Shown one piece after another: positions 10,441 through 53,279 of a DNA stretch of 64,000 nt; positions within the stretch are counted from its first letter, which is position 1, and every line of letters begins with the position of its first letter. Origin of the DNA: Bacillota bacterium. Its GTDB lineage: Bacteria > Bacillota > Sulfobacillia > DUMF01. The stretch covers positions 10,052-74,051 of the forward strand of contig JBNARI010000002.1 in the NCBI GenBank assembly GCA_049718765.1, written 5' to 3'. The position numbers and the translations under genes were made by a program. Under the pieces are notes generated by a model. It worked only from the letters and a program-made list of their open reading frames with translations. It did not search any database and was not told where the DNA came from.

Positions 10441-10814
10441 TGGCAGGCACTCACCCTTTCAGCACATCCCGAGTGATTGATTTCTTTGGTAGTTCGGTAT
10501 TGCGTCATGGTTCTCCTGCTGAAGGCAGCCATTGGGCATTCGGTATTATCGAAAGTTGTCTGGTGTTATCGAACAGGTTGTCCCGCACACCACCCCCTTC
10601 ATCATGGTACTGCCGGACTTGTCACTTCTCTGGCTACTGCGCTAAGCTTATGCCCGACTCGTTCGGCCCCATTCTCTATGGCCCTCCTGCTGCTCCTTGC
10701 ACTCCAAGTGAATCTCACACAATATCCAGCGCTGTTGACTTTCACCGCGAATCGTATTAACCTAAGAGTCAAGAAACCGACGTTGAAAGCTATGACTGGG
10801 AACAGTAACTGAGT

Positions 10815-11075
10815 GGACGTACCCAGAGAGCCGGGGGCAGGTGAAAGCCCGGTTGCGTTTCACCAGTGAAACCCGCCCGCGAGCTGCAGGCGATGAGCCG
10901 TGCCGGGTGCTCCCGTTACAGGGCTAGGCATAGCTCCTTCAGCAGTTTGTTTGCTGCGGGAGAGTGCCGAACCAACGAGATGGACCTTAGAAGTCCAACC
11001 AAGGTGGTACCGCGGAGGTTAGCCCCTTCGCCCTTGCCTGACGCAGGGCGGAGGGGCTTCGAACTTTTTAGGGGG
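10815..11075 (+). promoter_or_regulatory. T-box riboswitch leader (probably proline-specific) with intrinsic terminator
   Basis: AG-box 'AGAGAG' (10825-10830). Conserved T-box sequence 'AACCAAGGTGGTACCGCGG' (10998-11016). Terminator hairpin GCCCCTTCGCCC/GGGCGGAGGGGC followed by 'ACTTTTTA' (11020-11070). Lies immediately 5' of proC. Confidence 0.7.
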
Positions 11076-11082
11076 GTCTAGC

Positions 11083-11910: not shown

Positions 11911-11919
11911 GGAATGGGG

Positions 11920-13104
11920 TCACGCCCGGCACTTGGCCTGCCGCGCTTCTGGCAAGAGCAAAGCGAACGCCCAGGCGAGCACCTGCAGCGACAGTGCCAG
12001 GTAGAAAGCCGCCGTGAAATTGCCGAACAGGTCTGCCATGCGACCGGTTATGGCAGGGGAGGCCACGGTACCCAGCGCGCTGGCGAAGTTCAGCATTCCG
12101 AAAGCAGTGGCGTACCGGGACTTGGGCACAGCGTCGGCCATGTAGGCCACAATCAGCGGGTCCACCACCAGTTTTCCGGTTATTCCGTAGAGCACCAAAC
12201 CCGCGATCAACAAGGCGTTTTGAGGCAGGGATATGAGCAGGAAGCAAAGGGCAGAAACGGGCAGCAGCACGATCAGTATCCTCCGCCTGCTCCCAATCCT
12301 GTCGGAAAGCAAGCCCCCGTAAACAGAAAAGGGGATCGAAAGCAGCGGGGCAATCGAACAAATCAGGGACCCGTAAGTAGGGCTAAAGCCCCTCGCCTCT
12401 TGAAGGTAAAACGGCAACCAGGTGAGCAACAGGTAGAAGCCGTACATCGAAATGAATGCCAGGCCGTAGCAGGCAATACTGCCGCGCAGGTCCAACCCAC
12501 TCTCGCCGTGACCGCCCGCACCTCCCTCTTCCAGCTGCCCAGCCGGTTTGGGTGAGTGCTGCGCCGCGTCCCCCTGGATGACCATCAGCATCAAGACGGC
12601 AAGCCCCAGGGTGGCCACGCCAAGCACCACGAAAGGAACCCGCCACGACATCCCGTCGCGCGTGCTCCCGAAGCCGCCCGCAAGCAATCCGAGGATTATG
12701 CCCGCGGACATTCCCGAGTTGATCACAGCCATTCCAGCGGCTCTGTACTCATCGGGTATTTCTGCCCCAGCAATGGCGTACTCGTTCGAGTAATAAGTCC
12801 CCTGCCCAAGGCCCGTGAGCGCACGCACCGCCACGAATAGCTGCGGGTTGGTTACGCAGCCGCTCAGGATAGCACCGATTGCGTGCACGAAGTAGCCTGC
12901 AGCAAGCACCAGCTTCCGCGAGAAGCGGTCTCCGAGGAAACCAGCTGGCACCTGCATGGCGCCGTAGGTCACGAAGAACGCCGAAGTTATCAGGCCGAGG
13001 GCCGTCCTGGAAAGGTGCCATTCTTCCTGAATGGCTTTCATCGACGCAGACAACACGAGCCGGTTGGCGTAAATCAGCAACCAGCCTGTGAAGAACAATC
13101 CCAC
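11920..13104 (-). CDS. MFS transporter
   Basis: 394 aa, 12 TM helices, MFS signature 'GFLGDRFSRKLVL' between TM2 and TM3. Confidence 0.8.
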   Translation of the reverse strand: MGLFFTGWLLIYANRLVLSASMKAIQEEWHLSRTALGLITSAFFVTYGAMQVPAGFLGDRFSRKLVLAAGYFVHAIGAILSGCVTNPQLFVAVRALTGLGQGTYYSNEYAIAGAEIPDEYRAAGMAVINSGMSAGIILGLLAGGFGSTRDGMSWRVPFVVLGVATLGLAVLMLMVIQGDAAQHSPKPAGQLEEGGAGGHGESGLDLRGSIACYGLAFISMYGFYLLLTWLPFYLQEARGFSPTYGSLICSIAPLLSIPFSVYGGLLSDRIGSRRRILIVLLPVSALCFLLISLPQNALLIAGLVLYGITGKLVVDPLIVAYMADAVPKSRYATAFGMLNFASALGTVASPAITGRMADLFGNFTAAFYLALSLQVLAWAFALLLPEARQAKCRA

Positions 13105-32971: not shown

Positions 32972-33427
32972 TTATCTGATCTCCGCAACCGCAGTGGCCT
33001 CCCTTCTTACCTCCAGCCTCTGCCTGCCCACAAGCCCCGCGAAGTACGCAGGGATCTGCACTCTAGCAATGACTTCCACGGTACGCAGCCCGGGGTTGGC
33101 CTCTATGTGCTCCTCTACCAGCTGCGCCCCGGGTATCTTCTGCACGTTCGCCACAAGACACTCGTACGCTGCCTGCTCCGCAGTGGCCTTGTCCATCTCC
33201 AGGTACCTTCTGTACACGCGCCCAAATGCGTCGTGCAGCACCACCTCCCGCGCCGTCAACGCACCGGCAAGGCTTGCAGCGTCCACCGCGGTCTGCAGTT
33301 GCACACGCGCAAGCTGCTGTCTGCCTGCGTCCAGCGCAAAGCCCAAGAAAGCCACCGCCACCGGCAGCAGCACCGCAAGAAATATCACCACCTGCCCGCT
33401 CTCGGAGCGCCAGCGCGCTGAGAACAA
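32972..33427 (-). CDS. TadE/TadG-like pseudopilin
   Basis: Start reassigned to TTG at 33427 with RBS GGGAGGGGGG. The N-terminus '(M)FSARWRSESGQVVIFLAVLLPVAVAFLGFALDAG' is a classic TadE-like hydrophobic segment. The upstream 116 codons of the track ORF are rejected. Confidence 0.5.
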   Translation of the reverse strand: MFSARWRSESGQVVIFLAVLLPVAVAFLGFALDAGRQQLARVQLQTAVDAASLAGALTAREVVLHDAFGRVYRRYLEMDKATAEQAAYECLVANVQKIPGAQLVEEHIEANPGLRTVEVIARVQIPAYFAGLVGRQRLEVRREATAVAEIR

Positions 33428-33477
33428 ATGTTCATCCCCCCTCCCTAAACGGCTCTCCCGAAACCGCCGGCTAGCGG

Positions 33478-33987
33478 CTAGTAAACCCCGGCAACCCTGA
33501 GCGCGGCCCATGTCAAAGCAATAAAAACAGGCACCTCCACCACCGGATCCCCGGTCACGACCGGCCCCCGCGGATGGCGCAGCCGATCCAGCCAGGGAGG
33601 CAGTGCTTTCAAAGGCACAAATGGCTCTACTCCAGTCCTGGTCAGCGCATCCAGGAACAGGTGCGAAAGAAGGCCCAGAAGCGCACACGCCCCCACAGTC
33701 CACCAGAGCGGCCGCGCCAGCCGGGCAAAAGCTGCCCCCAAGGCGGCCAGGACCGACCCTGCCAAGCAAAACCACACGGTATGCGTAATCGTCCGGTGCC
33801 CCGCCAGAGTTTCCAAGAGCGCCGATACCGGCCTCACCCGCCGCCCGACCAAGCTCCCCGGATGGTCCACATCGGGCAGCAAGGCGGCCAGAGCACCTAC
33901 TACCATCCCCGCCACGGGCTCCCCTGCCAGCCGGCCCGCCAAAGCACCGACGAGGGCGCCCGCCGCAGCGTGTGTTCTCCCTGTCAT
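33478..33987 (-). CDS. Membrane-bound metal-dependent hydrolase (DUF457/YdjM-like)
   Basis: 169 aa, multi-TM. 'LLPDVDHPGS' and 'SHLFLDALT' His/Asp motifs are typical of DUF457. Confidence 0.45.
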   Translation of the reverse strand: MTGRTHAAAGALVGALAGRLAGEPVAGMVVGALAALLPDVDHPGSLVGRRVRPVSALLETLAGHRTITHTVWFCLAGSVLAALGAAFARLARPLWWTVGACALLGLLSHLFLDALTRTGVEPFVPLKALPPWLDRLRHPRGPVVTGDPVVEVPVFIALTWAALRVAGVY

Positions 33988-34014: not shown

Positions 34015-35874
34015 CTAGAAGTAAAACCCGTCGGACGCGTTCTGCCTGACCTTCACCCGCAGACCCGACTGCTGCCCGGAAACTCCCTTGACCTCGAGTC
34101 TGCCCGCACCCGCCGGACCGTGCCTTGCCGCGCGCTTTCTGTCCCACTCGCACAGCTCCAGCCTCACCTTCAGAGGCGGAAGGGGCTCACCGTCCCTCAC
34201 CACCCGCACCACCGCACAAAACTTCGGCAGCTCCATCAACTCGGTGTACGGGTACCTCGCCTCCCTCTTCTCGGCCTCACGGTAGCCCTCCGCATACCAC
34301 GGGAAAATGAACGTCCCCTGCCTGGTGTAGCTCTTCTGCTTCTCCACCCTCTCATACTCACCCAGCTGCGCCGCAAGGTACTTCGCCTCTTCCGCAGTCC
34401 CAGGGTTCAAAATGATCTTGTTCCGCGTGTTCTCCACCATCACCTCCCGGAACGTCCGCTTCTCATCCAGCACCACCTGCGCCGTCGTCTGCAGAGCAAG
34501 CACAGCCGCACACCTGTACGACCGCCCAATCGCCAGCAGCCTCTCAAAGTCCGCGTTCACATACCGCGGAAACTCGTCCACGTACAAAACATGCGGCGTC
34601 CGCGTCCGCTCAGTCCCCTGCCTCCGGAACACAGCCTGCTGAAAGTGCAGAATGAAAAACTGCCCGAACGCGTCGCCCAGCCTCCCAAGAGGCCCCATCG
34701 CCGTGTTCACCACCAGCACGCCACCCTGCTCCAGGTGCCTGTCCAGGTCCACGTCGCTCTTCGCACACAGCACCCGCCTCAGCATCGAGTTCCCAGTCAG
34801 GTCCTCCAGCGTCAGGCGAAGGCCCATCAAGAACTGCCGCGACTTCTCGTTCTCCAAAACCTCCACCCTGAAGTAGTCAGCTACACCCTTCTTGCTCCGC
34901 TCCGCAGGACCCGCCTCCAGCCGCTTCATATACGCCTCAAGCTTCCGGTAGTCCCGCAAAGCGTCTATCAGGTCCTGCACCGTCACGTCGTCACCCTTCA
35001 CGTACTTCAAAAGCAGCACGATGTTTCTCGCCGCAAGCTCGTAGTTCGCACGGAAAAACGCCTCCTGGCGACCGAACAAATGCACCAGCACCGTCCTCAT
35101 GATCTCAGCCGCCGTCTCGGCGTCGCCCTCAAGCGGGTTGAAAGTGGCCGTCCCAGGCCACTCCGGATTGACAAACGTGCACGGTATCTCCAGATCCCTG
35201 CACATCTCGTACACGTCCTGCGCAAGATCCCCCTTCGGCTCCACAACAGTTACCCCAAGCCTGCAGCCGCGCTTCAGAGCCTGCAGGTCCTGCCATATCA
35301 TCGGCTTCAGCACCCTGCTCGTCTTCCCCGTCCCCGTCGTCCCCGTCACAAGCGTGTGCAGGTACCGGTCGTCCCTCTTTATCACCACCGGGCCGTTCGC
35401 ATACCCGATCACCACGTCCATTTCGTCCGTCCTCTGTCTCGCAGGCCCTCTGCCGGGCCGCAAGCCCAACAGAACCAGCAGGCCCACCGCGTACGGCGCA
35501 AGCAGCGCCCCCTGCCGCACAGCAGCCGCGTCCGAAACAGTCAGGTACGGCACCCGCCCCAGAGAAGCCATCCAGCGGACCGCCAAGCCCTCGAGTACCA
35601 CCGCACACAGCGACGCCACGCAAACGTACACAGCCCCTATCCCGGCCCACAGCGGCACGTCCCCCAGCTGCCCGCTCAGCACCACCAGCGCAGCGGACGC
35701 ACAGCACGACACGCACAGCAGGGCAACACTGCGCACCCACACGCCCACAACCGCGCACGCCACGCACACTCCCAACACCACACGCAAAACTCGCCTCACA
35801 GCGCCGCCTCCTTCCTGTCCGCAGCCCGGTGCAAGATCACCTGACCGGACTGAAGCCTGTAAAGACCGCTCCAA
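34015..35874 (-). CDS. Type IV coupling protein (VirD4/TraG/TraD family)
   Basis: N-terminal TM helices. Walker A 'VTGTTGTGKTSRVL', Walker B 'VLYVDEFPRY'. 619 aa. Confidence 0.8.
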   Translation of the reverse strand: MERSLQASVRSGDLAPGCGQEGGGAVRRVLRVVLGVCVACAVVGVWVRSVALLCVSCCASAALVVLSGQLGDVPLWAGIGAVYVCVASLCAVVLEGLAVRWMASLGRVPYLTVSDAAAVRQGALLAPYAVGLLVLLGLRPGRGPARQRTDEMDVVIGYANGPVVIKRDDRYLHTLVTGTTGTGKTSRVLKPMIWQDLQALKRGCRLGVTVVEPKGDLAQDVYEMCRDLEIPCTFVNPEWPGTATFNPLEGDAETAAEIMRTVLVHLFGRQEAFFRANYELAARNIVLLLKYVKGDDVTVQDLIDALRDYRKLEAYMKRLEAGPAERSKKGVADYFRVEVLENEKSRQFLMGLRLTLEDLTGNSMLRRVLCAKSDVDLDRHLEQGGVLVVNTAMGPLGRLGDAFGQFFILHFQQAVFRRQGTERTRTPHVLYVDEFPRYVNADFERLLAIGRSYRCAAVLALQTTAQVVLDEKRTFREVMVENTRNKIILNPGTAEEAKYLAAQLGEYERVEKQKSYTRQGTFIFPWYAEGYREAEKREARYPYTELMELPKFCAVVRVVRDGEPLPPLKVRLELCEWDRKRAARHGPAGAGRLEVKGVSGQQSGLRVKVRQNASDGFYF

Positions 35875-36878
35875 CCGTGCGGCTCACACACCAGAAACCA
35901 CAGACCTTCAAGACCTGCCAGGTGGCGCGCCCACCGCCTCGCCTGGGCCTCGCTCGCCACAAACACCGTCACCGGCCTCCTCCGCACGTCGTGCCCTATC
36001 AGCCCATTCACCACCTGCAGGTCACCCAACCGCAGGTCCGCAAGCAGCATCTGGCCGCGGCGGGGGTGACTCCAGGCAAACGCTGCCAGCCACCCCGCTT
36101 CCACCCCCACCAGCCGCCCGCCAGGAGCATACGCCCACATGAGCCGCTCCGCCACGCACCCAAAACTCTCCCTGACACCCCATGCGAAAACCCCAACCTC
36201 GTCCAGGGTGATCACCTTGAGCGGAGGCACAGGCGCTTCCCTCAACAGCGCCCTCACACTCGACCGCAGCTCTTTCTCGGTGCGCAGCACAAGTGTGTGC
36301 CCGCTCGCATACTGCCCGCAGCGCCTCACCGAATCACACAGCTGCCCCCTCGTGAGCTGCTCCTTCTTCACGTACACGAAGTGCAGCCCGCCTTCATGCC
36401 TCACCCCCCACGACACTGCGCACCACCTGCTCGGCGCCCGCCCCGTCGCTCTCAGCGCCTCACGCCTCGAAAGGATGTCGCCCGGGGGGATGCCGGCGAC
36501 AACCGCCCGCACATAAAACTCGTTGTCCCCAACCGCTGCAACGTACTCGCCATCTTCCAGCCTAGCCAACCCCTCGCTCAACCCAACTGCCCGCGCCCCA
36601 CGCGCCGTCAGCACCACCACGCGCTTCCGCTTGTCCCAGGGATCGGGCTTCTGCCGGAGCAACCCTGCTTTCACAAGCGCTCCCAACACGTAGTAAGCCC
36701 TCTCCAAATCACCCCCAAACAGCAGAACAGCCACCTGACTGCAGCTCAGCGCCTTCAGGTAGCCCACCCACCTCAAGACCTCCAAATCATGCTCGCCCAC
36801 ACCTGCATCCAACCCGATCACCTCCGCAACACACGCACGCTTGCAGAGGACGGGCACCATCCCCACCAGCAGGCCCAC
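35796..36878 (-). CDS. Hypothetical winged-helix protein (relaxase-accessory or replication-relaxation-like)
   Basis: 360 aa. N-terminal 'LSCSQVAVLLFGGDLERAYYVLGALVKAGLL' is wHTH-like. First gene of the operon with the coupling protein. Confidence 0.3.
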   Translation of the reverse strand: MGLLVGMVPVLCKRACVAEVIGLDAGVGEHDLEVLRWVGYLKALSCSQVAVLLFGGDLERAYYVLGALVKAGLLRQKPDPWDKRKRVVVLTARGARAVGLSEGLARLEDGEYVAAVGDNEFYVRAVVAGIPPGDILSRREALRATGRAPSRWCAVSWGVRHEGGLHFVYVKKEQLTRGQLCDSVRRCGQYASGHTLVLRTEKELRSSVRALLREAPVPPLKVITLDEVGVFAWGVRESFGCVAERLMWAYAPGGRLVGVEAGWLAAFAWSHPRRGQMLLADLRLGDLQVVNGLIGHDVRRRPVTVFVASEAQARRWARHLAGLEGLWFLVCEPHGWSGLYRLQSGQVILHRAADRKEAAL

Positions 36879-37143: not shown

Positions 37144-37848
37144 TTAGTCGAGCAATTTTTGAGGGGATAAATCGGGCTCTTCCGCATAAAAATCGTCGCC
37201 CATGCTCCCAGTTTTGGTATCGTCTGGCATCAGGGGATCAAAGCCACTCAGGCGGGCCATCTGCCTCCGCAGGGCCAGGGCCCACCGGAACAGGTGCCTG
37301 GGTTGCTCGGTGACCAGCACATCGGCTCCCGGCGTTCCGCTCAGCCTCATCTGCAGGAGCCACTTAACCTCTCCATCTGTGCGCACCACCCCTGCATCCT
37401 CCAGTGCGTCCAGAAGGGACTTCGCCCCGTAGTTGTCCAGGTCACGGCTCTTGGGCCCCAGTACGGCCACAACAACACCTGGCCTCTCCAGAGGCGCGTA
37501 CCCGAACCTCCTGCCGCCGAAGGCCTTTGCAACTGCAGTGTGCCACCAGCCTTTCATCAACCGCCAGATTTCGCGGTCCACGGAGCTGTCAAACTTCAGG
37601 TACGCATTGAGCGAAGGTGGGAGATCTCCCCGTATGCAGAGCAGTACAGCTCTCGGCGGCTGAGACCGGTACCAGGCTTGCACCCGTATGTCCACCTCCC
37701 AGTCGTCCACAGCAGGCACGCCACGCATGAGCCGCCTCATGCTCTGCGTCACTGCCAGGTAGCACTTGAGATGCATCCGCCGCATCTCTTCCAGGTCGCT
37801 CAGGCAGCTCATTTTCTCCCAAAGGCAAGCTTCCTGCCCAGGTCCCAT
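37144..37848 (-). CDS. RusA-like Holliday junction resolvase with N-terminal extension
   Basis: Start set at 'MGPGQEA' because the upstream part of the track ORF is an Arg/Trp read-through. The RusA-like core is 'VVAVLGPKSRDLDNYGAKSLLDALEDAGVVRTDGEV'. Confidence 0.45.
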   Translation of the reverse strand: MGPGQEACLWEKMSCLSDLEEMRRMHLKCYLAVTQSMRRLMRGVPAVDDWEVDIRVQAWYRSQPPRAVLLCIRGDLPPSLNAYLKFDSSVDREIWRLMKGWWHTAVAKAFGGRRFGYAPLERPGVVVAVLGPKSRDLDNYGAKSLLDALEDAGVVRTDGEVKWLLQMRLSGTPGADVLVTEQPRHLFRWALALRRQMARLSGFDPLMPDDTKTGSMGDDFYAEEPDLSPQKLLD

Positions 37849-37879
37849 CTCACCACCCCTTCCAGCACTGTCTCTCTTC

Positions 37880-38206
37880 TCATTCCCCAAGCATCCTGTC
37901 CAGTAGAGCGTCGAGCTTCGCCTCCACCTCCTTGTCCAGCTCAGGAGAGGCCCGCACCTGCGCGGCAGCGGCCGTGCCCAGCCTCTCCTCCAGCGCCGCC
38001 AGCCTCTGCTCGATCCTCTCCAGCAGCGCCAGCCTCTCTTCGATCCCACGCAGCAGCGCCCGGGTCCCGAAGTACTGCTCCACCGCAGCGCGCACGAAGG
38101 CGGCCTTGTCGCGGACCTCATCGAACTTTTGTTCGATGGCCCCGTCCAGCTTGAACGACACCCTGTACCTCTTCACCCCGCCGCTCCTCCCCTGTGGCAC
38201 AGACAA
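37880..38206 (-). CDS. ParR-like small DNA-binding protein (RHH plus coiled coil)
   Basis: 108 aa. N-terminal 'KRYRVSFKLDGAIEQKFDEV' is beta-strand/RHH-like. Lies downstream of the ParM-like gene and is flanked by TGTGGCACA repeats. Confidence 0.35.
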   Translation of the reverse strand: MSVPQGRSGGVKRYRVSFKLDGAIEQKFDEVRDKAAFVRAAVEQYFGTRALLRGIEERLALLERIEQRLAALEERLGTAAAAQVRASPELDKEVEAKLDALLDRMLGE

Positions 38207-38430
38207 ATCGGGCGCCTAGCTGGGCCAAGTCTTCAAAAACACGCATTTTGTGGCACAAGCCCCAGGGCCTGCTCTCCCCAGTGTGCCACAAGTACCACGA
38301 AGACCGCGGCATCTGCCCAGCACAGCGCCGCAAAACGGGCGCGCCACACAGTGCAGAGGGGTCTGTGCCACAACTGCACCTAAAAATGCACCATCCGCCC
38401 AGCGTGAGAGGCAAAAACTGCTGTGCCACA
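38193..38430. repeat. Centromere-like or operator repeat cluster (TGTGGCACA / TGTGCCACA)
   Basis: Copies at 38193, 38248 (TGTGGCACA) and 38282, 38364, 38422 (TGTGCCACA). These form an inverted arrangement about roughly 38270, between the parM-like and parR-like genes. Confidence 0.5.
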
Positions 38431-38443
38431 GCGCGCTGTGCGG

Positions 38444-39481
38444 CTACGCGGTGGCAGTGGCCTGCGCGGCCGCCTCCCGCCTCGCTGCGAGGTTCAGGAA
38501 CCCTCTGGCGTTCGCGAACTGCGCGTCCGGCAAAAGCTGCACCGGGAACTGCCGCCTGCTGAGAGCCCCCTCCAAGACCTTCGCTCCTCCTCCTGCCAGA
38601 AACAGCACCCTCAGGTACTTGCCCCTGTCCTTCCACGTCATCCTGAGCCTCTCAGCGACTGCCTCTGCCAGCACCTCGGCGCTCTCTTCGCAGAGCTCAC
38701 CGAGCCTATATTCCCTGCCGCGGAACCACAGCTTCCCGCGCTCCATCGCCTGCTCCACCTGCAGCACGTCCACCACGTCACCCACGATCTCCTGGACCCT
38801 GTGCTGCACCGCACTGACCACGTCGCTCATCGCCATGTTCACCGTGCCGCACCCCGACTCGATTATGTCGAGGCTGCCCAAGTCCACGAGCAGGAAGTCC
38901 GTGGTCTTGTACCCGCAGTCCACCACCGCCGCAAGTCCTCCCTCCCGCAGCAGGGACTGGCCCAGGTCGCTTGCACGCCCCCGCTCGTCGAGCACTGCGC
39001 TGTAGAACGCGCCCACAGCCTGCGGCACCACCGTCACCCTGTCGAAATACACCTTCCGCCTTCCTGCGCCGCACACCTCCACGTCCGCCCTCATGGTGCT
39101 GAGCATCTGCAACAGCTCGCCCTTCTGGGTCTTGTACAGCTCGAACGGCAGCCCAGCGGCCACGTGCAGGGCACCCGGCCGGTCGTGTGCGAGCAGGACC
39201 GTAGCAGCCCCGTAAAGCACAGCGGTGAAGTGGTGACAGACCCTGCTCTCGTCGAACGCCCTGGTGGCGTTCCAGGACTCCGCCACCGCCAGCTTCCCCA
39301 CGAAGTACCTCCTGCCGTCCACCACGACCTCGTACTCCCTACGTCCCTGGCTTATGCCGAACGTATCAACAACCCGGTGCTCATACCCGTCACCTACCAC
39401 GGAGGGCATGAGCAATGTCCTTCCGGTGTCGCTCAGTCCCTTAACGTAACCGTGCCCCAGGTCAATCGCTATCCTCACCAC
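38444..39481 (-). CDS. ParM/StbA-like actin-family plasmid segregation ATPase
   Basis: N-terminal phosphate-1 motif 'IAIDLGHGYVKG', adenosine motif 'LAAVVDCGYKTTDF', C-terminal 'VLFLAGGGAK'. 345 aa. Confidence 0.6.
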   Translation of the reverse strand: MVRIAIDLGHGYVKGLSDTGRTLLMPSVVGDGYEHRVVDTFGISQGRREYEVVVDGRRYFVGKLAVAESWNATRAFDESRVCHHFTAVLYGAATVLLAHDRPGALHVAAGLPFELYKTQKGELLQMLSTMRADVEVCGAGRRKVYFDRVTVVPQAVGAFYSAVLDERGRASDLGQSLLREGGLAAVVDCGYKTTDFLLVDLGSLDIIESGCGTVNMAMSDVVSAVQHRVQEIVGDVVDVLQVEQAMERGKLWFRGREYRLGELCEESAEVLAEAVAERLRMTWKDRGKYLRVLFLAGGGAKVLEGALSRRQFPVQLLPDAQFANARGFLNLAARREAAAQATATA

Positions 39482-43296: not shown

Positions 43297-44184
43297 TCAA
43301 AAGCCGAGGTCCCGCAGCATGTTCATAAGAGCAGGCCCCATCATGATCACCAGCATCGGCACAAAGATCAGGAAAATCACCGGGAACAGCATCTTCACAG
43401 TTGCCTTCTGCACCACCTCCTGCGCCCTGTTCCGGCGCTTGTTTCTCATCTCCGCCGCGAACGACCGCAGCACCTTCGCGACCGGTGTCCCGTGTTCTTC
43501 CGCCTGCACCAGCGCCGTCACAAGCTCGCTCAGCTCCTGCACGCCGTTGCGCTCGCTCACCTCCTTCAGCGCTTCCTTGCGGGGTCTACCCAGCCCTGTT
43601 TCCCTGAAAGCACGCCCAAATTCAGATGCCAGCAGGGACGACTGGTAGGACGCCACCCTTTCAACCGCCTGCTGCAGTGACAGTCCCGCCTCGCACGCGA
43701 CTGCGAGCATGTCTGTGAAGTTCAGGAGCTCCTTCTCGATCTGTGCCTTCCGGCGCCTCGCCTTCTCGTTCAGCCAGACGTCCGGTGCGACGAACCCCAG
43801 CATGGCAAAAAGCGCTCCTATTACCACAGCCCTGGCCCCGGAGCCCACCATCCCGAGCAGGCTGAACACGCCGAACATGACGGCCCCGAACGCGATCTTT
43901 GCCGCGAAGAACTCCTCAGGAGTGTACTGCCCCGACATGCCCGCGTGTGCCAGCCTCTGCTTCAGCTCCTCCTCGGCCTGAACGGCCAGAAACCTGCGCG
44001 CAACCCGTACCAGAAACCGGGGCCGCTTTGTGTCCTTCAACTCGGATACTGCTGCCCGCACTCCCTCTTGGGCGCCGATCACCTCCCCGAGGCGGCCCCA
44101 CGCGGCTTCGGAACGCACTTGCCTCCACACCAGAAGCATGAGCACTGCACCGAACGCCAGAAACCCAACCCAAAGCAGCTCCAC
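43297..44184 (-). CDS. tadC: TadC-like (GspF-domain) pilus assembly membrane protein
   Basis: 295 aa. A GspF-like domain ('AGLSLQQAVERVASY...') is flanked by TM helices. Confidence 0.65.
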   Translation of the reverse strand: MELLWVGFLAFGAVLMLLVWRQVRSEAAWGRLGEVIGAQEGVRAAVSELKDTKRPRFLVRVARRFLAVQAEEELKQRLAHAGMSGQYTPEEFFAAKIAFGAVMFGVFSLLGMVGSGARAVVIGALFAMLGFVAPDVWLNEKARRRKAQIEKELLNFTDMLAVACEAGLSLQQAVERVASYQSSLLASEFGRAFRETGLGRPRKEALKEVSERNGVQELSELVTALVQAEEHGTPVAKVLRSFAAEMRNKRRNRAQEVVQKATVKMLFPVIFLIFVPMLVIMMGPALMNMLRDLGF

Positions 44185-44859: not shown

Positions 44860-45249
44860 TCAGATCGCCTCGAGCAGGTTGCGGACTGCTTGCTTCAGCT
44901 CGGCGCGCAGCTGCTCCGCGGACACAGGGTCGCCAAGCTCCCCGACACCTCTCGCGGTGTCTGCACCGCCCCGCAGGAACCCACATGCCATCCTTGTGAA
45001 ACGGCGGTTCGCCATTTTGAGCACTTCGATGTTGCCGAGGTAGTACATCCCGCCCTCGGCATACACCCTGTGGCCCAGGTGCCGCAGGCTCTTCGCGAGC
45101 CTCTGCACCTTGATCCTATTCTCAAGAGAGTCTGTCCCAAAGATTTCCTGTGCTATCTGGGCCGTCGGCACCCCTGCAGGATGAGCCTTCTCCAGTATGT
45201 CAAGCATCCGCTCGGCATCCGTGCCCCTTCCGTCCTTCAGCCGTTTCAC
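44860..45249 (-). CDS. Hypothetical protein
   Basis: 129-aa ORF with globular composition. No family recognised. Confidence 0.3.
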   Translation of the reverse strand: MKRLKDGRGTDAERMLDILEKAHPAGVPTAQIAQEIFGTDSLENRIKVQRLAKSLRHLGHRVYAEGGMYYLGNIEVLKMANRRFTRMACGFLRGGADTARGVGELGDPVSAEQLRAELKQAVRNLLEAI

Positions 45250-46766
45250 CTCTCATCACCCCCTTTATCAGGCCCACCTTTTACGAGCTGCAGGAACGGC
45301 TTCTTCGGTTCCAGCAATTCCCACGTCTTTACGATCCAGCTCCCGGCAGCGTCCAGGGCCGCCTTGAAGCTGTTGTAGGTGAGGGCGTCCTCGACAACTT
45401 CTGCCAGCTGTTCGATGTCGTCCCCCGGAGTGCCGCGCACCCGCGCCGCAGCCCTGAGCCGGTCCGCGTGCTTGGTCCCGATCTCCGTGAGCGCCGCCAC
45501 CAGCATGACCGCGCCGTCAGTCGCCTTCTCCAACAGCGCCCGGAACGCAGTGTGCTCTTTGGACCACTGGGGCGGCTTGGGCCGCAACTTCTCCTTCTCC
45601 AGCTCCCTGCTCGCCTGGTCGAGCATCCGCTGGAGCTGGCTCGCCTGCTCCTCCAGCATCTTGACTCTTGCTTCCTTCTGCGCCTTCTCTTCAGCCAGGG
45701 CCAGGAGCCGCGACTGCAGCAGCTCCTTGTCCCTCAGCAGCTCCGCAGCCTGCTTCCTCGCAGCCTCCAGCTCCGCTTCGACAGCGGGATCCGTCCTGTA
45801 CACGACCTTCTCCACCACTTTCTCGAATGGCCTCTGCTCGAGCTCCTTCAGCCTCACCCGGAGCTGTTCCACCTCTTCGGTCCGCTGCCTGAGCTTGGCC
45901 TGGAGGTCGCAAAGCGCTTCCTGGAGCCTCTCCTCATACTCCCGGCCCACCTTTTCCGCGACTTCCGCCTCCAGCGAGGACAGCGCGTCCCGCAGCCCGG
46001 CAAGCTCCCGGCAGAGGGAGTCCCTTTCTTCCTCGAGCCTCGCCAGCTGCTCAGACAGGGCTTCCTTCTCTGCCCGCGCAGACTCGAGCTCCCGCCTCAG
46101 CTCCTGCGCCTGCTTCACAGAAAGCCCGCAGACGCCGGACTCGCCCAACACTTCCAGCAGCCGCCTCTGCTCCTCGGGCGGCAGGAAGGCCAGGGAGTAG
46201 GCTGCGGTCTGGGAGAGCTTCCCCTGGGAGACAAGTTGCTGGAGCTCGGGGATGAGGTCGTTGAGCTTGAGGAGACGCAGAGTAGTCCTGTAGTCCTCCC
46301 CAATGGCCTCAGCTACATCGGCAAGGGTCTTGACCTGACGGACAAAATGTCCTTCAGGTGTGCCAGGTTTTGCTAAGCTACCTTCCCGCACTCCCCAGTA
46401 CCGCTTCAGAAACTCCGCCCTCTTCGCCTTCTTCATCGGGTCCCGGCAGAAGCGCCTCTCCTCGTTGTCCGCGATCAGCAGGTACTCCAGGTACTCCTCG
46501 TCGCCCTCGACGATCACCACGGGCACCTTCTCCAATCCCAGCTCCTTCGCAATTTCCAGCCGCACATGGCCCGCGATCACCCTGTAGTCCGGCGTGACCT
46601 TCAGCGGGTCCCGGATACCTTCAGCCGCAATGCTCCGCTTCAGCGCCTCCCTCTCTTCCGCAGTCGGCGGCGAAAAGTACTCCGTGTTTTTCGGATGCGG
46701 CTTCAGAAGCGAAACGGGCACCTCGTTGTACACAAACCAGCACCTCCCTATCAAGCCCGCTTGCAA
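45246..46766 (-). CDS. ParB/Srx-like nuclease-domain protein with long C-terminal coiled coil
   Basis: N-terminal ParB-like box ('KVTPDYRVIAGHVRLEIAKELGLEKVPVVIV') plus an HTH region, then about 250 aa of heptad-rich Glu/Leu/Arg/Ala coiled coil. Confidence 0.6.
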   Translation of the reverse strand: MQAGLIGRCWFVYNEVPVSLLKPHPKNTEYFSPPTAEEREALKRSIAAEGIRDPLKVTPDYRVIAGHVRLEIAKELGLEKVPVVIVEGDEEYLEYLLIADNEERRFCRDPMKKAKRAEFLKRYWGVREGSLAKPGTPEGHFVRQVKTLADVAEAIGEDYRTTLRLLKLNDLIPELQQLVSQGKLSQTAAYSLAFLPPEEQRRLLEVLGESGVCGLSVKQAQELRRELESARAEKEALSEQLARLEEERDSLCRELAGLRDALSSLEAEVAEKVGREYEERLQEALCDLQAKLRQRTEEVEQLRVRLKELEQRPFEKVVEKVVYRTDPAVEAELEAARKQAAELLRDKELLQSRLLALAEEKAQKEARVKMLEEQASQLQRMLDQASRELEKEKLRPKPPQWSKEHTAFRALLEKATDGAVMLVAALTEIGTKHADRLRAAARVRGTPGDDIEQLAEVVEDALTYNSFKAALDAAGSWIVKTWELLEPKKPFLQLVKGGPDKGGDER

Positions 46767-46878: not shown

Positions 46879-47790
46879 CTAGTCGGCCAGAGCCTGTACC
46901 ATCCTCCTCATCACCCACCAGCCCAGGGCGATCGTCACGTAGCACCCGGCCAGCATGGCCCTGCCCGTTGCCGTCTGGGTCATCGGTCTGAAGTAGGCCG
47001 GGTTCTGGGCGTACAGGAAAAGCGTTACCACGATCGGAGCCGCAGACACGACTGCTGCAGACAGCCTCGCCTGGCTCGTGTGCGCGAGCAGTGCCCGCTT
47101 CAACGCCCTCCGTTCGGACACCATCTGCCCGATCAGGTCGTACACTTCCGCAATGTTTCCGCCCGTCCGGGACAGGACCTGGGTCGCCACAATGAACACG
47201 TCCACCTCGGGGCACTCGATGCGCTTCTTCAACTCCAGCACCGCGTCCTCGGGGGGCAGGCCGAACCTCATTGCCTGCACCACGCGGGCAAACTCTTCCG
47301 TTACAGGAGCGGGCGCGTCCGCGGCGGCCCTCTCCAGAGCCTGCCCCAGGCTCGCCCCCGCCCGCAGTGACGAGCTGAGCACGGAAAGCGCAGCGTCGAA
47401 CCGGGCCGCAAAAGCCTCCGCCCTCCGCTTTTTCAACGCGCGCACGTAGTACCGGGGCAGCACCGCACCGGCCACAAGGCCGGCCGCCGCAAACCACACG
47501 CTCCCGGTCACGGCCAGGAGTGCCGTGAACCCGGCCGCGCTCCCCAGCACCGCCACCAGCAGCAGCGTCCGCGCCGTGACCGAAAGCCCTGCCTTCGCTG
47601 CTTCTTCCTCCAGGCGCGAAAGCCAGGGTACTTTCTCTGCCCGGGTACCGGCTCCAAGCCCTGCTTCAGCCACCACGTCTTTCTCGGGCTCACCCCTGAT
47701 CACCTTCTCAACTGCAGGTGGCTGCTTCCTCCTCAGAGAAAGCACAAAAAACAGCACAGAGGCAAACGTGAACAGCGCTGCGCCGCTCAT
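46879..47790 (-). CDS. tadB: TadB-like (GspF-domain) pilus assembly membrane protein
   Basis: Start set at the ATG at 47790 (ATGA overlap with the cpaF stop). The 137 upstream codons of the track ORF are a Gly/Arg read-through. TM-GspF-TM architecture. Confidence 0.6.
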   Translation of the reverse strand: MSGAALFTFASVLFFVLSLRRKQPPAVEKVIRGEPEKDVVAEAGLGAGTRAEKVPWLSRLEEEAAKAGLSVTARTLLLVAVLGSAAGFTALLAVTGSVWFAAAGLVAGAVLPRYYVRALKKRRAEAFAARFDAALSVLSSSLRAGASLGQALERAAADAPAPVTEEFARVVQAMRFGLPPEDAVLELKKRIECPEVDVFIVATQVLSRTGGNIAEVYDLIGQMVSERRALKRALLAHTSQARLSAAVVSAAPIVVTLFLYAQNPAYFRPMTQTATGRAMLAGCYVTIALGWWVMRRMVQALAD

Positions 47791-49112
47791 CCGCTGCCAC
47801 CGCCCCTCTCTTTTGCCAGCACTCTTGGCACCGGCACCCCGTACCACTCGAACTTCCACATGAAGCGCGGCTCGTGCACGGACCACACCAGCCTTCCTTC
47901 CCTTACGTCGTACCTGGCAAGGTCCCTCACCACCACGCTCTCCCCATCCGTTTCCACTGGCTCCGAGACCGCCACCACCTTCCTGGACCCGTCCCTGAAC
48001 CTGGCCGCCTGCACGAAAAGCTCCACCGACGCCACAATCTGCTGCAGCACCGCCCTCCGGGGGAGGTTCCCTCCCGCCTGCAGCACCATCACCTCCAGCC
48101 GGCTTATCGCGTCCTGGGGCGAGTTGGCATGGATCGTGGTCAGCGACCCCTCGTGGCCGGTGTTCATCGCTTGCAGCATGTCCAGCGCTTCGCCGCCCCT
48201 GCACTCGCCGACCACAATCCGGTCCGGCCTCATCCGCAGCGCATTTCTCACCAGGTCCCGCATGGCTATTTCGCCCCTGCCCTCTATGTTGGGGGGTCTG
48301 GTCTCGAGCCTCACCACGTGCTCCTGCTGGAGCTGCAGCTCCACCGTGTCCTCTATCGTGACGACCCTCTCCCCCGCCGGTATGAACGACGACAGCACGT
48401 TCAGCAGCGTGGTCTTGCCGGAACCCGTACCTCCCAGCACGACCACGTTCACCTTCGCCTCCACGCAGCGCTGCAGGAACTCCAGAGTTGCCTCGTCAAG
48501 AGTGCCAAGCCGCAGCAGGTCCCCGGCGGTGAGCCTCTTACCGAACTTCCGTATCGTGATGCACGCCCCGTCAACGGCCACAGGCGGTACTGCGGCGTTC
48601 ACCCTGCTCCCGTCCGGGAGCCTGGCATCCACCATCGGGCTCGACTGGTCTATCCGCCGCCCCACAGGTCCCACTATCTTCTGGATCACCGTGCGCACGT
48701 GTTCCTCGTCCCGGAACACAATGTTTTCAGCCCTGTGGATCCTGCCGTTCTTCTCGTAGTACACCCTGTCGTACCGGTTCACCATCACTTCTGTGACCTC
48801 GGGATCGTCGATCAGGGGCTGTATGGGACCGTAGCCCAGCACGTCCTGAAGGATCCTTTCCACCACAGCCGCCCTCGCGTGGCGCTGGAGATCTGCCCCC
48901 TCCCGGTCCGCTATCGCGGCCACCAGCCTGCGAAGCTTCTCGTCGTCCTGCAGCACGCCCGAGTCCAGCCTGGCGTACAGCGCCCGCCTCACCCGCTCCT
49001 CGACTTCGGCCGCGCGCTCGCGCCCCACCGCAGCGGCAGCCTCCGCCCGCGCCCTCGGCGCGCTGGTAGCCTCCTTCTCTTCCATCCGCCTGCGAATCAG
49101 TGACACACCCAA
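47787..49112 (-). CDS. cpaF: CpaF/TadA pilus assembly ATPase
   Basis: Walker A 'VVLGGTGSGKTTLLNVL', Asp box 'VVTIEDTVELQL', His box 'GHEGSLTTIHAN'. Confidence 0.85.
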   Translation of the reverse strand: MGVSLIRRRMEEKEATSAPRARAEAAAAVGRERAAEVEERVRRALYARLDSGVLQDDEKLRRLVAAIADREGADLQRHARAAVVERILQDVLGYGPIQPLIDDPEVTEVMVNRYDRVYYEKNGRIHRAENIVFRDEEHVRTVIQKIVGPVGRRIDQSSPMVDARLPDGSRVNAAVPPVAVDGACITIRKFGKRLTAGDLLRLGTLDEATLEFLQRCVEAKVNVVVLGGTGSGKTTLLNVLSSFIPAGERVVTIEDTVELQLQQEHVVRLETRPPNIEGRGEIAMRDLVRNALRMRPDRIVVGECRGGEALDMLQAMNTGHEGSLTTIHANSPQDAISRLEVMVLQAGGNLPRRAVLQQIVASVELFVQAARFRDGSRKVVAVSEPVETDGESVVVRDLARYDVREGRLVWSVHEPRFMWKFEWYGVPVPRVLAKERGGGSG

Positions 49113-50327
49113 CTACAGACCCCTCCTCTTCCACCGGAAAAGCCTTGAGATCAGCCCGCCCCTGTGAGACGCGATCACGTCCCCGAGAGCAGGTGTCACC
49201 CTTGCAGCAAGCCCAAGCACGGCATTCGTGAACGGGCAGCTCCTTTCGAGCACCGGGAGCCGGCCCTGGTTCTGCAGTGCCGGCACGCTCTCGTCCTCAG
49301 GTATCTGCGCGACCAGCTCCCACGGCAGCCACTCCTTAACCTGCGCCACCGAGAACGGCGGCTTCCTTGGGACCCGGTTCAGCACCACCCGGATCTTCCT
49401 CTCGTCGGTGTGCGTGAGGGATATGTCCCTGGGCGCCCTGTACACGTCCCTCAGCGTCTGCACGTCCATCGTCGCCACCACAAGCACCGAGGTGGCGGAC
49501 TCCAGCCCCACCACTGTGGCGTCCTCGAAGTCGGGGCCGCAGTCCACCACCACCACGTCGGCGTTGCGTCTCATGTACTCGAGCACATCGGTCGCAAGCG
49601 CCTCGTCCAGCAAATCTTTGTTTATGGCCCTCCTTATGCCCGGCACCACGTGGATCGTGCCTTTCTTGCCCACGGGGTATGCTGCGACCCTGGACTCGAA
49701 GCGATCGTCCTTGGCCTCCGCCCAGGCCTCCACGGAAAGCGGAGTGCTGATCTGCAGCAGTGCGGTCACCCTGGCGTGGGGGTCGAAGTCCACAACCACC
49801 ACACGCAGATCGGGCATGTACTTTGCGTACACTGCAGCCAGGTTGCACACGAGAGTCGTCTTGCCCACGCCGCCCTTGGGGCTGTAAACGGTTATCACCT
49901 GCTGGCGCACCACCCTGCTGCGCGGCCCCGGGGGCTCCTCCTCACCGGGACCACTCCATGGCGGCTGTAGCTGCTCGTCGCCGCCAAGTTCATCGAGCAC
50001 TTCTTCCAGTTCCAGAGCGTCGAGGGGCCTGCGCACTACGCCCTTGAGCCCCTTCTTGGCGGCCCTCCTGTAAAGGTCAATCCCCGCGTCCCCTGATGCA
50101 AGCAGCACGGGCACCCCACCCAGCACGTGCACGGCCTCAGCACCCATGTCAAGGCTGTCCACCAGTACAGCGTCCGCACCACCGACCCTGCCCCTCAGCT
50201 GCGCGGGGCTGTCCGCCACCGCCAGGACACGCACACCCCGGCCCAGACTCTCTACTTCCCTGACCAGGTCCTCTGCGCCAATAACGCACAACCTCAACAC
50301 CTTACCGCCCTCCTCCCGGCTGGACAA
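49113..50327 (-). CDS. cpaE: CpaE/TadZ-like protein (receiver-like N-domain plus ParA/MinD ATPase)
   Basis: Deviant Walker A 'VYSPKGGVGKTTLVCNLA' and 'VVVVDCGPDF'. Confidence 0.75.
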   Translation of the reverse strand: MSSREEGGKVLRLCVIGAEDLVREVESLGRGVRVLAVADSPAQLRGRVGGADAVLVDSLDMGAEAVHVLGGVPVLLASGDAGIDLYRRAAKKGLKGVVRRPLDALELEEVLDELGGDEQLQPPWSGPGEEEPPGPRSRVVRQQVITVYSPKGGVGKTTLVCNLAAVYAKYMPDLRVVVVDFDPHARVTALLQISTPLSVEAWAEAKDDRFESRVAAYPVGKKGTIHVVPGIRRAINKDLLDEALATDVLEYMRRNADVVVVDCGPDFEDATVVGLESATSVLVVATMDVQTLRDVYRAPRDISLTHTDERKIRVVLNRVPRKPPFSVAQVKEWLPWELVAQIPEDESVPALQNQGRLPVLERSCPFTNAVLGLAARVTPALGDVIASHRGGLISRLFRWKRRGL

Positions 50328-51552: not shown

Positions 51553-51984
51553 TCAGGACTTCTCGACCCTCCGCGCCGTGGCAAACGAATATATCTTCCA
51601 CTGCCCGGCAACCCTGGCGAACTTCAGTACAGCCACCATGTCCACAGTCGTGGTCCCCGCCCCGGGCACCGTCTGCTCAAACACGTAAGCTGCCACCACG
51701 TCCCCGCGTGTCCGGTCGCGGGAGACCCAGTCGCACTTCAGCTCCAGCCCGGAGACCTTATTCTGCACATTCATCGCCCTGAGAGCGGGCACCGCAGCCC
51801 TCATATCCGCAAGGGCCTGCCCCGTCAGAAAAGAGCACGCCGTGTCAAAGTCGCGGCTGTAGAAGGCGTTGAGGAACCGAGTCCCCAGATCCACCAGGTC
51901 CCGCTCGGTCGTGTAGCTCCTTGAGCACCCCGCAAGCGTCATTACGGTCATGAGGGCTAGAAGGAGCGCACCCTGCTTCCTCAT
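51553..51984 (-). CDS. Lipoprotein (SnoaL/NTF2-like, DUF4878-like)
   Basis: 'MRKQGALLLALMTVMTLAGCS' lipobox. 'FLNAFYSRDFDTACSFLTG' parallels 'YVQAYYSGDFERALNLTSG' in the paralogue. ATGA overlap with the upstream gene. Confidence 0.5.
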   Translation of the reverse strand: MRKQGALLLALMTVMTLAGCSRSYTTERDLVDLGTRFLNAFYSRDFDTACSFLTGQALADMRAAVPALRAMNVQNKVSGLELKCDWVSRDRTRGDVVAAYVFEQTVPGAGTTTVDMVAVLKFARVAGQWKIYSFATARRVEKS

Positions 51985-53279
51985 GTGCCGGCTGCGCGCC
52001 GCAGGCCGGCCCGGAGCCGGTCGACAAGTGCCCCTACGGCCTCCCGCCGCACCGACTCCCACGGGGACTCGAGCTCCGGCACCAAGCAGTCGGGTCTGCG
52101 GCCCAGGACTTCGGTTACCTCTTGCCTCGCCCGGTTTAACACCAAGAACTCGCACCCTACCTTCTTCACCTCCCTCTTCACGACCGCCAGGTGGGCGGGG
52201 TCCGGGTCCACTACGAGCACCCTGAGCCACGCCGCTGCCAGCAGTGCTGCAGCCCACTCATCTTCCGCCACACACGGCATGTCGCACACAAACACGTCGG
52301 CATTCACCTTCGGAGAATTCAGAAACCGTTCCAGCACCTGCCACTCGACCTCCAGCCGGCCGAGCGCCGGGTCCCTGCTGAACACGGTGACCCCTTCAGC
52401 CTGCAGCCCGAAGGGCCCGTCGGTGACCACCAGAGCAGGAGAAAGCACCTTCCCGAGCGTGTCCTCCCCTTCGGGCAGCCGCAGGTACGTGTGCAGCGCG
52501 TGCTTGTGCGTGTCCAAATCCACCAGCGCCACCCTGACCCCGCGCGCCGCAAGCGCGGCCGACAGGAAAGCGCTCACCAGCGTCTTCCCGCATGGAGCCG
52601 GGCTCCACACGGCCACAACGGGCATCCGGAGCCTCATCGGCCCAGCGGAACCGGCCTGCGGCCCGGTGGGCGAGACCTGTTGTCCGAGCGGGAAAGGATT
52701 GCCGGCGGCCTCTGTTTTACGCTTCGCTGCGGCACTTACGGCAGGCGCCTCCCGTGGCCCAGCCGGGGTCGCCGGTTCCACAGCCCCACGGACCCCTCCC
52801 TTCCCGGCCAGCGCACCGCCCAGCCGGTGGAACAGCTCCAGAAAGTCCCGCTTCGGCCTGGGCTTCGCAGCCGCGCAGCACACCTTCAGCGCCTCCGCGA
52901 ACGTCCTTGGCCTCTCGATGCAAGCATCTATGTCCTCCACCCGCACTGCGCGGTCCTCTCCGTAAAACAGGATGTCGTATACCCCCATAGCGATGAGGTC
53001 CTTGATAAGCTGCGACCCCCGGGGCATGTCGCCGGCAAGGAACACCACCCGCAGCCCGGCAAGCCTTGCCTCGAACACCACGTCGGCCATGTCCTTCGTG
53101 CCCTCGAGGTACGCGGATAAAAGCAGCACATCCGCCTCGGTGCGCTTCACTGCGTCGAGGACGGCCTCCCGGTAAAACACCCTTGCGCAGACCTCCACAC
53201 CGCCCCCCTCTGCCATCTCCTCGTAGTACCTGTCCAGCTCATCAACACCCGTGGCAAGGATCAGCCTACTGCGCGGCAC
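51981..53279 (-). CDS. CpaE/ParA-like protein with degenerate Walker A (possibly non-catalytic)
   Basis: Receiver-like N-domain. The P-loop position reads 'VAVWSPAPCGKTLVSAF' and lacks the KGG of deviant Walker A. 'VALVDLD' is conserved. Confidence 0.5.
   Translation of the reverse strand: MPRSRLILATGVDELDRYYEEMAEGGGVEVCARVFYREAVLDAVKRTEADVLLLSAYLEGTKDMADVVFEARLAGLRVVFLAGDMPRGSQLIKDLIAMGVYDILFYGEDRAVRVEDIDACIERPRTFAEALKVCCAAAKPRPKRDFLELFHRLGGALAGKGGVRGAVEPATPAGPREAPAVSAAAKRKTEAAGNPFPLGQQVSPTGPQAGSAGPMRLRMPVVAVWSPAPCGKTLVSAFLSAALAARGVRVALVDLDTHKHALHTYLRLPEGEDTLGKVLSPALVVTDGPFGLQAEGVTVFSRDPALGRLEVEWQVLERFLNSPKVNADVFVCDMPCVAEDEWAAALLAAAWLRVLVVDPDPAHLAVVKREVKKVGCEFLVLNRARQEVTEVLGRRPDCLVPELESPWESVRREAVGALVDRLRAGLRRAAGT

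Follow-up and report, generated by a model that had tools for sequence, protein, structure and literature searches.

We analysed a 64,000-nucleotide stretch of DNA (the window) from the 122-kb contig JBNARI010000002.1 of a Bacillota bacterium (assembly GCA_049718765.1), in which the gap between a gene for an actin-like ParM ATPase and a small downstream gene carries an array of short palindromic sites. We consider it reasonably likely that ParR binds this array as the centromere of a partition cassette with the order parM–parC–parR, and that the array doubles as the operator of parR. Comparison of related loci supported the view that the sites are real, that they are locked in position to the gene pair, that their spacing is under selection, and that they covary with the adaptor protein. 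A first-pass annotation of the window had already proposed a parC-type centromere here. That proposal was strengthened by same-position arrays with conserved spacing in ~30 loci in which both proteins are homologous, but its description of the cassette as the expected organisation of a type II (ParMRC) system did not hold, because the canonical parC consists of direct repeats upstream of parM, whereas the sites found here are palindromic and follow parM, which has no gap ahead of it.

Five exact copies of a 9-bp motif, TGTGGCACA/TGTGCCACA, were found at positions 38193, 38249, 38282, 38364 and 38422, all inside the parM–parR gap, with start-to-start spacings of 56, 33, 82 and 58 bp. The motif is an odd palindrome, TGTG-S-CACA, and several copies extend to 11 bp (YTGTGSCACAR). 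Outside the gap, no exact copy of TGTG(G/C)CACA occurred on either strand of the window, against an expectation of 0.88 copies in 64 kb, and none of 100 dinucleotide-preserving shuffles gave five or more. The five copies reported by the first-pass annotation are therefore real, and a count across the window, which it had named as a check, placed the enrichment in the gap only. One-mismatch variants of the motif were not enriched anywhere in the window (18 against 18.3 expected). The GC content of the gap was equal to the window mean (62.5%). Runs of A/T of at least 4 nt were five-fold enriched in the gap, and only 1% of 267-bp segments had five or more such runs.

Relatives were collected by scanning viral contigs and one genome per species with a profile, which yielded 95 further loci. 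Three loci with a ParM ~60% identical to that of the window showed the order parM, gap, small gene, rusA-like gene, and their gaps carried repeats with a GCCAC core. In ~70 of 97 loci, parM was followed by a co-oriented gene of the small-protein family, at a distance that was bimodal (up to 21 bp, or at least 140 bp). When each ~9-kb locus was scanned for the 300-bp segment richest in repeated 7-mers, that segment lay in the interval from parM to the small gene in 27 loci, which take in most of the loci with at least five repeat copies. Arrays of short palindromes were present in the same gap of ~30 related Bacillota loci, including the plasmids pCBH and pY0017 and a Moorella locus (L059). The site sequences varied widely by locus, and most were palindromes of 7–11 bp (for example GTGCCAC, TGTAAACA, TGTTAACA, TGTATACA, TGTAATACA, TGTCGGACA, GTCACACC, TACCGGTA, GTGTACTACAC, GTGGSCCAC and ATCSGAT). 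The longest arrays had 17–18 sites over ~650 bp (L009).

The spacing of the sites followed a common rule. Among 158 neighbour distances measured across loci, 53 were 55–59 bp, compared with 5.2 expected from random placement; the classes of 10–15, 21–25 and 30–34 bp held 18, 18 and 21 distances (12.4, 8.3 and 7.3 expected), and those of 67–72 and 79–83 bp held 8 each (5.2 and 3.5 expected). The last two classes look like intervals that are missing a degenerate site. The conserved pattern was an interval of 55–59 bp alternating with one of ~13, 23 or 33 bp, and the spacers joining the units step by about one helical turn. A ~57-bp interval typically stands at both ends of an array, so the unit consists of two sites separated by 57 bp. 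A blind detector, which accepted any 7-mer with at least two neighbour distances of 55–59 bp, responded in ~26 loci to sequence in the parM–parR gap or immediately behind parM and gave a single hit anywhere else; the 23 loci in which parR abuts parM gave none. The loci with parR up to 21 bp after parM (L034, L038-L051, L057, L058, L061, L082, L088-L091 and L096, from Sporosarcina, Lentibacillus, Siminovitchia and some viral contigs) showed no 57-bp array or obvious iterons within 4 kb on either side, and no obvious upstream iterons.

From this rule, the 82-bp interval in the window should conceal a site. A sixth, degenerate site, CGCGCCACA, was found at exactly the predicted position (38340–38348), at distances of 58 bp to the site at 38282 and 24 bp to that at 38364, and it was the sole further match in the gap at up to two mismatches. 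The full array reads 38193 -56- 38249 -33- 38282 -58- 38340 -24- 38364 -58- 38422. The six sites form three ~66-bp modules (Table 1), with inter-module spacers of 24 and 33 bp. Every module contains a pair of sites at a distance of 56–58 bp, together with an A/T tract and a central heptad in fixed position. The three modules aligned end to end over 65–67 columns, modules 1 and 2 directly and module 3 only as its reverse complement. The first-pass annotation had described two copies in one orientation and three reversed, arranged around ~38270. Since the motif is palindromic, only the centre base (G or C) differs among copies; this base is nevertheless informative, because it follows the direction of the module, and the inversion of module 3 explains the pattern G,G,(G),G,C,C that had been read as orientation. 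The symmetry around ~38270 was not real, and the structure is instead one of three 57-bp modules with the third inverted. Modules 1 and 2 were recognisable duplicates that aligned over 67 columns, and a 40-nt repeat (D3) was also found. This duplication would suit a chance or neutral origin of the repeats without any function, an explanation that is effectively refuted by the shuffles and by the maintenance of the spacing rule across loci with unrelated site sequences.

The interiors of the modules were also conserved. AAGCC/GGCTT was present inside the modules of 17 of 25 loci (3.5 expected), AAAGCC in 13 loci (1.1 expected), and AAGCCT and AAGGCT in 10–11 loci each (0.9 expected). These motifs occupied fixed offsets, near the module midpoint and ~15 bp to one side, often as the inverted repeat AAGCCTT-N5-9-AAGGCTT, and they stayed constant while the outer sites changed. 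Loci with the interior AAGSCTT motif included L009, L059, L070, L075, L031, L033, L036 and L037. In the window, the heptad GCTGGGC occupied the position where related loci carry the AAGSCTT inverted repeats, and it provided the sole invariant interior columns of the three-module alignment. As a specific motif GCTGGGC was rejected, since its 35 copies in the window are what chance predicts; only its fixed position within the modules is notable.

The genes of the cassette and their neighbours all lie on the minus strand. The identification of the upstream gene as an actin-like ParM by the first-pass annotation was confirmed by both Pfam matches (Table 1) and by comparison with the PDB, in which the best relative was the ParM of pCBH (6izr, E 1.6e-24), with Ta0583 and the distant Dh-cParM1 (E 2.7e-6) also matched. 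The nucleotide-binding residues of ParM, which were invariant in an alignment of 23 homologues, were present in the window protein. The start of parM overlaps the preceding DUF192 gene by 20 nt, which leaves no space for a site upstream of parM. The start of parR is most likely the GTG at 38176, which has a GGAGGAG Shine-Dalgarno sequence upstream and gives a protein of 98 aa, the same as in the NCBI annotation. With this start the gap measures 267 bp; the first-pass annotation was right to place the array between the two genes, and its values of ~240 bp for the gap and 108 aa for the protein need correction, the latter probably to 98 aa. A 325-aa open reading frame at 37144–38121 (minus strand), which overlaps parR in another frame, was rejected as an artefact of GC-rich sequence. 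Within the parR coding region, positions 37988–38047 hold a 30-bp tandem duplication (83% identical) that adds ~10 residues to the coiled coil (LERIEQRLAA); these residues were missing from the homologues of L001, L002 and L004.

The gene right after parR encodes a RusA-like resolvase, and its start is probably the ATG at 37848, with GGAGG 5–6 nt upstream. The equivalent genes of pCBH, L001, L002 and L004 also gave a weak RusA-like PHROG match. These matches were weak but consistent, and they point to a conserved module of the form parM–array–parR–rusA-like. As a speculative side observation, the inverted repeats at the module centres could be cruciform-forming substrates for the RusA-like resolvase.

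Table 1. Coordinates of the array, the cassette genes and the surrounding genes (window positions, except for the equivalents in relatives, which are locus positions).
Feature	Position	Strand	Remarks
Gap array, proposed parC-like centromere and parR operator	38177–38443	.	267 bp, parM stop to parR start
Module 1	38364–38430	-	sites 38422–38430 and 38364–38372, 58 bp apart
Module 2	38282–38348	-	degenerate site CGCGCCACA (38340–38348) and site 38282–38290, 58 bp apart
Module 3, inverted copy	38193–38257	+	sites 38193–38201 and 38249–38257, 56 bp apart
Central heptad GCTGGGC	38397–38403; 38315–38321; 38219–38225	-; -; +	one per module, from the three-module alignment
parM-like actin-family ATPase gene	38444–39481	-	345 aa; Pfam ALP_N 7e-25, MreB-like_C 1e-26
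parR-like gene	37880–38176	-	98 aa; N-terminal RHH-like domain, coiled coil, linker, conserved C-terminal helix
RusA-like resolvase gene	37144–37848	-	right after parR; PHROG 34 RusA-like, E 3.9e-6
rusA-like equivalent, L101 (pCBH)	3470–4129		
rusA-like equivalent, L002	5545–6207		
rusA-like equivalent, L004	5536–6162		
rusA-like equivalent, L001	4494–5108		
TadE/G-like	32972–33775		
VirD4	34015–35874		
wHTH/Replic_Relax-like	35796–36878		wHTH, winged helix-turn-helix
T2SSF (two)	43297–44184; 46879–48204		
ParB-like	45246–46766		506 aa
TadA-like ATPase	47787–49112		
CpaE/ParA-like (two)	49113–50327; 51981–53279		

The small protein had been described in the first-pass annotation as a ribbon-helix-helix (RHH)/coiled-coil protein resembling ParR. 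A single-sequence search with it found only itself, and its homologues were recovered only with a profile built from syntenic loci (four small proteins). Similarly, BLASTP of the window ParR and RusA-like proteins against the pCBH proteins gave no matches, and the relationship was visible only to profiles. The family members share an N-terminal (K)xYSFRL...RSxFIRxALxFY sequence, in which RSxFIRxALxFY is an RHH_1-like motif, followed by a coiled coil, an acidic low-complexity linker and a conserved hydrophobic C-terminal helix. The family profile matched the pCBH ParR with 25.5 bits. Weak Pfam matches were obtained to Plasmid_stab_B (5 of 26 members) and RHH_1 (3 of 26). In the PDB, the top match of the N-terminal profile was 2q2k, which covered the whole domain and which we take to be the RHH domain of pSK41 ParR bound to centromere DNA (the PDB file says 'Hypothetical protein'); the RHH protein NikR was also listed, and hhalign of the N-terminal profile against the 2q2k segment gave 93.7%. 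The AlphaFold2 (AF2) model of a relative (P0028) has an extended N-terminus, a helix (14–20), a loop, a second helix (25–62), a disordered linker and a C-terminal helix (90–104), which in outline would be the RHH order of elements. Thus, the ParR-like part of the earlier description stood on the pCBH family match and on the resemblance to the pSK41 domain, while the model of the window protein itself lacked an RHH fold (see below). It is chiefly profiles and motifs, and not a confident structural model, that support the RHH assignment.

Across loci, the class of site tracked the N-terminal strand of ParR. Proteins with the strand (Y/F)RVxF were accompanied by outer sites GTGCCAC / GTGGCCCA, those with Y(S/G)FR(L/T) by sites of the TGTwwwACA types, and those with SLHIKLP by GTCACACC. 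Such covariation is expected if an RHH ribbon reads the palindrome.

These results suggest how the array might work. Each 9-bp palindrome has a size suited to one RHH dimer of the 98-aa ParR-like protein, and by analogy with MetJ-type RHH proteins one dimer would occupy one palindrome. With ParR dimers on the palindromes, the coiled-coil stalks might pair or stack and the 57-bp modules fold, so that the array condenses into one compact assembly. This would present ParR's conserved C-terminal helices to the ends of ParM filaments, which would push copies of the element apart. The element partitioned in this way would be a conjugative plasmid or an excised integrative and conjugative element (ICE). 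The ParR–array complex would probably also autoregulate parR and the rusA-like gene, because the promoter-proximal site sits on the ribosome-binding region of parR: the site at 38193 is 17 bp upstream of the parR GTG and beside the Shine-Dalgarno sequence, that is, in the 5' untranslated, ribosome-binding region and not in coding sequence. At the other end of the gap, the first site of module 1 is 14 bp past the parM stop and, with its flanks (38420–38432, minus strand), scores as a weak intrinsic-terminator-like hairpin followed by T5 (GCTGTGGCACAGC then AGTTTTTGCC). The terminator-like score was limited to the first site and its flanks and was not seen at the other sites; this hairpin could reduce transcription running on from parM into parR. 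The gap yielded neither a sigma-70 consensus promoter nor, at E up to 1, an Rfam match that would indicate a structured RNA. A sigma-54 promoter was rejected: the motif includes TGGCAC, but inspection by eye showed TTGC at the -12 spacing in none of its copies.

The position of the last site also bears on the possibility that the array is a transcriptional operator only, through which the small RHH protein autorepresses the operon of parR and the rusA-like gene (perhaps with the relaxase and VirD4 genes) and has no role in segregation. A site on the ribosome-binding region of parR in the window, and similarly in many relatives, is what such an operator would show; the downstream genes are DNA-processing and conjugation genes, and MetJ-type RHH repressors bind 8-bp palindromes. 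However, up to 17–18 sites fill the whole gap from the parM stop codon in relatives, which is far beyond the need of a promoter operator, and no promoter was detected in the gap. The array always travels with parM, even where the downstream context differs, and the conserved C-terminal helix of ParR on a flexible linker is typical of motor-binding adaptors. We regard this explanation as unlikely. Because operator and centromere are the same DNA in type II systems, it amounts to the negative half of the centromere model.

Two plasmids extended these observations. In pCBH of Clostridium botulinum, parC was assigned to 9901–10030, ParM to 10031–11083 and ParR to 11558–11935 (Koh et al. 2019, PMC6599009). 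The pCBH (CP006901) parM–parR gap is 474 bp long (2585–3058 of our locus L101, in which the published parC is 1402–1531), and it contained 13 TGTATACA-type palindromes (8 exact and 5 with one mismatch) with spacings of 58, 13, 56, 58, 13 ... 57, 13. The palindrome gave 17 matches against 4.6 expected, a number reached in none of 200 shuffles. Exact TGTATACA was not found elsewhere in 5 kb of the pCBH region, and the published parC, the 130 bp upstream of parM, did not contain it. The published assignment of the pCBH centromere may be incomplete or wrong. In pY0017, a conjugative Sulfobacillus plasmid, GTGACGGCAC sites begin on the stop codon of parM, with a distance of 58 bp from the first to the second, and the array is followed by a gene for an RHH-like protein of 93 aa. 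The presence of the array on pCBH and pY0017 indicates that the architecture is not confined to chromosomal copies.

On this basis we put forward a broader proposal, with somewhat less than even confidence. A widespread Bacillota ParMR clade, found on plasmids, ICE-like elements and chromosomes, may use an unrecognised centromere design, located between parM and parR and built of 57-bp composite modules in which two adaptor-dimer palindromes flank a position-fixed central inverted repeat (mostly AAGSCTT, GCTGGGC here) and an A/T tract. Such a design would imply a folded or looped segrosome unlike the solenoids of R1, pSK41 and pB171, possibly with a second bound factor, and its corollary would be that the published upstream parC of pCBH is not the main centromere. 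The 57-bp grammar appears to be unreported for this kind of system.

Several points weigh against the centromere assignment. The profile match of the small protein to 2q2k was marginal (E 0.056), and the AF2 monomer of the window protein (pLDDT, the model's confidence score, 78) consisted of an extended segment (1–11), a single helix (12–73) and a C-terminal helix (79–97), with no helix-loop-helix. A Foldseek search with the relative's model gave no significant match (E >7 to RHH proteins), although two of the three matches were RHH proteins. A spacing of 57 bp corresponds to ~5.4 helical turns and is, to our knowledge, without precedent in ParR–parC complexes. The conserved interior AAGSCTT motif may mean that another factor binds or that the motif has a structural role, so that the model is incomplete. 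The position of the array and the type of repeat differ from every characterised parC, all of which are direct repeats upstream of parM (PMC9426499). The authors of the pCBH study placed parC upstream of parM and observed an electrophoretic mobility shift there with 2–320 uM ParR (PMC6599009), and some of the relatives are on chromosomes whose ParMR role is not established (PMC12270681).

The surroundings of the cassette were examined next to the array itself. The first ~17 kb of the window looks chromosomal, with lower GC and with MFS and MeaB genes. The region at ~25000–58000 contains the VirD4, wHTH/Replic_Relax-like, Tad-like, T2SSF and ParA/ParB-like genes listed in Table 1, together with genes for an M23 peptidase, an AAA ATPase, and SLH and FN3 surface proteins, and this gene set suggests a Tad-pilus-associated transfer system in a Bacillota metagenome-assembled genome. 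The genes downstream of parR and the Tad-like pilus set have the make-up of a conjugative element. Neither a tRNA nor the boundaries of the element were found in the window. In L002 and L003, whose contigs are long enough, Replic_Relax and VirD4 genes likewise follow the rusA-like gene.

This context raises the question of whether ParM, ParR and the array have been repurposed, so that the array would tether either the element or the chromosome to filaments of ParM, for example to position DNA at the Tad-like conjugation apparatus or in a cytoskeletal function. The cassette lies amid genes for conjugation and a Tad-like pilus, and the gene ahead of it in relatives is TadE-like or encodes a prepilin peptidase; chromosomal ParMR systems of Firmicutes without an assigned role have been reported (PMC12270681), and a preprint on Anabaena describes ParMR turned into a cytoskeleton (bioRxiv 10.1101/2025.06.27.661541). 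Nevertheless, the same architecture is present on large low-copy plasmids that need partition (pCBH and pY0017), and gene order is the sole link between ParM and the pilus here, which makes such an anchor improbable.

The nearby relaxase-like gene similarly brings in an origin of transfer (oriT) or a relaxosome assembly site, in which the small protein would assist the relaxase in the manner of TraY, TrwA or NikA. Repeated sites at oriT are known targets of RHH accessory proteins, the Replic_Relax-like/wHTH and VirD4 genes lie 1–2 kb downstream, and Replic_Relax is also present in L002. However, the array is tied to parM and not to the Replic_Relax-like gene, which is 1.3 kb away and has its own 265-bp upstream gap. 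Moreover, pCBH is typed as non-mobilizable yet carries the array, and the small-protein family matches ParR proteins and not relaxosome factors. No nic-like element was seen in the array, although no search aimed at one was made. We therefore consider an oriT very improbable, and retain the ParR-binding centromere as the preferred interpretation of the array.

ParMRC is the textbook bacterial 'mitotic spindle', and the adaptor–centromere structures that we know of come from few plasmids only, all with tandem direct repeats upstream of parM. The grammar of the sites described here, in which palindromes are set 57 bp from each other, spacers lengthen in steps of one helical turn and modules carry interior motifs, offers a new and testable segrosome geometry found across dozens of thermophilic and clostridial elements. 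This grammar would account for the unexplained 474-bp parM–parR gap of pCBH, a plasmid whose 15-stranded filament is already solved, offers candidate centromeres for chromosome-encoded ParMR systems, and gives annotators a simple rule for locating such centromeres.

Among known partition systems, sopC of the F plasmid (type Ia ParABS) consists of 12 units of 43 bp. It resembles the present array as a centromere of repeated long units that follows the partition genes and in which each unit has a short inverted repeat bound by a dimer; it differs in having an unrelated Walker ATPase motor and helix-turn-helix ParB adaptor, and one site per unit. The classical type II systems (the R1 parMRC, pSK41 parMRC, pB171 par1 and pCW3 families) share with the window an actin-like motor and, encoded behind it, a small adaptor (RHH-like in the window), as well as iterated adaptor sites beside the operon, and an adaptor C-terminus presumed to contact the motor. 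Their parC, however, is made of direct repeats upstream of parM that overlap the operon promoter (PMC9426499), and the repeats are closely packed, with lengths of 11, 20, 6–10 or 17 bp (PMC9426499, PMC2241845), whereas the palindromes of the window are isolated, follow parM, and belong to 57-bp modules that also carry interior motifs. A full-text search of the open-access literature found no parC between or downstream of parM. The srpMRC system of SXT/R391 is likewise a ParM-type partition cassette on a conjugative element able to integrate, and SrpR binds a set of 13-bp repeats, some direct and some inverted (Carraro et al. 2015, PMC4489591); it differs in its proteobacterial host, in the position of srpC upstream of srpM (PMC4489591) and in having no 57-bp modules.

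Chromosomal cParMR pairs have been described in Desulfitobacterium, Moorella and Bacillus (PMC12270681). In that work Cb-cParMR was the one system with a reported parC, which lies upstream of parM, while Dh-cParMR was left with no identified cparC. These pairs are related to the window through Dh-cParM1, the distant PDB match of its ParM, and through the array-bearing Moorella locus. A close counterpart is the ParMRC system of pCBH. It differs in its site sequence and in low protein identity, and its intergenic array was not described by its authors, but it provides the closest solved ParM, its ParR matches the small-protein profile, and its gene order is the same: a pilus-related gene, parM, a long gap, parR and a rusA-like gene.

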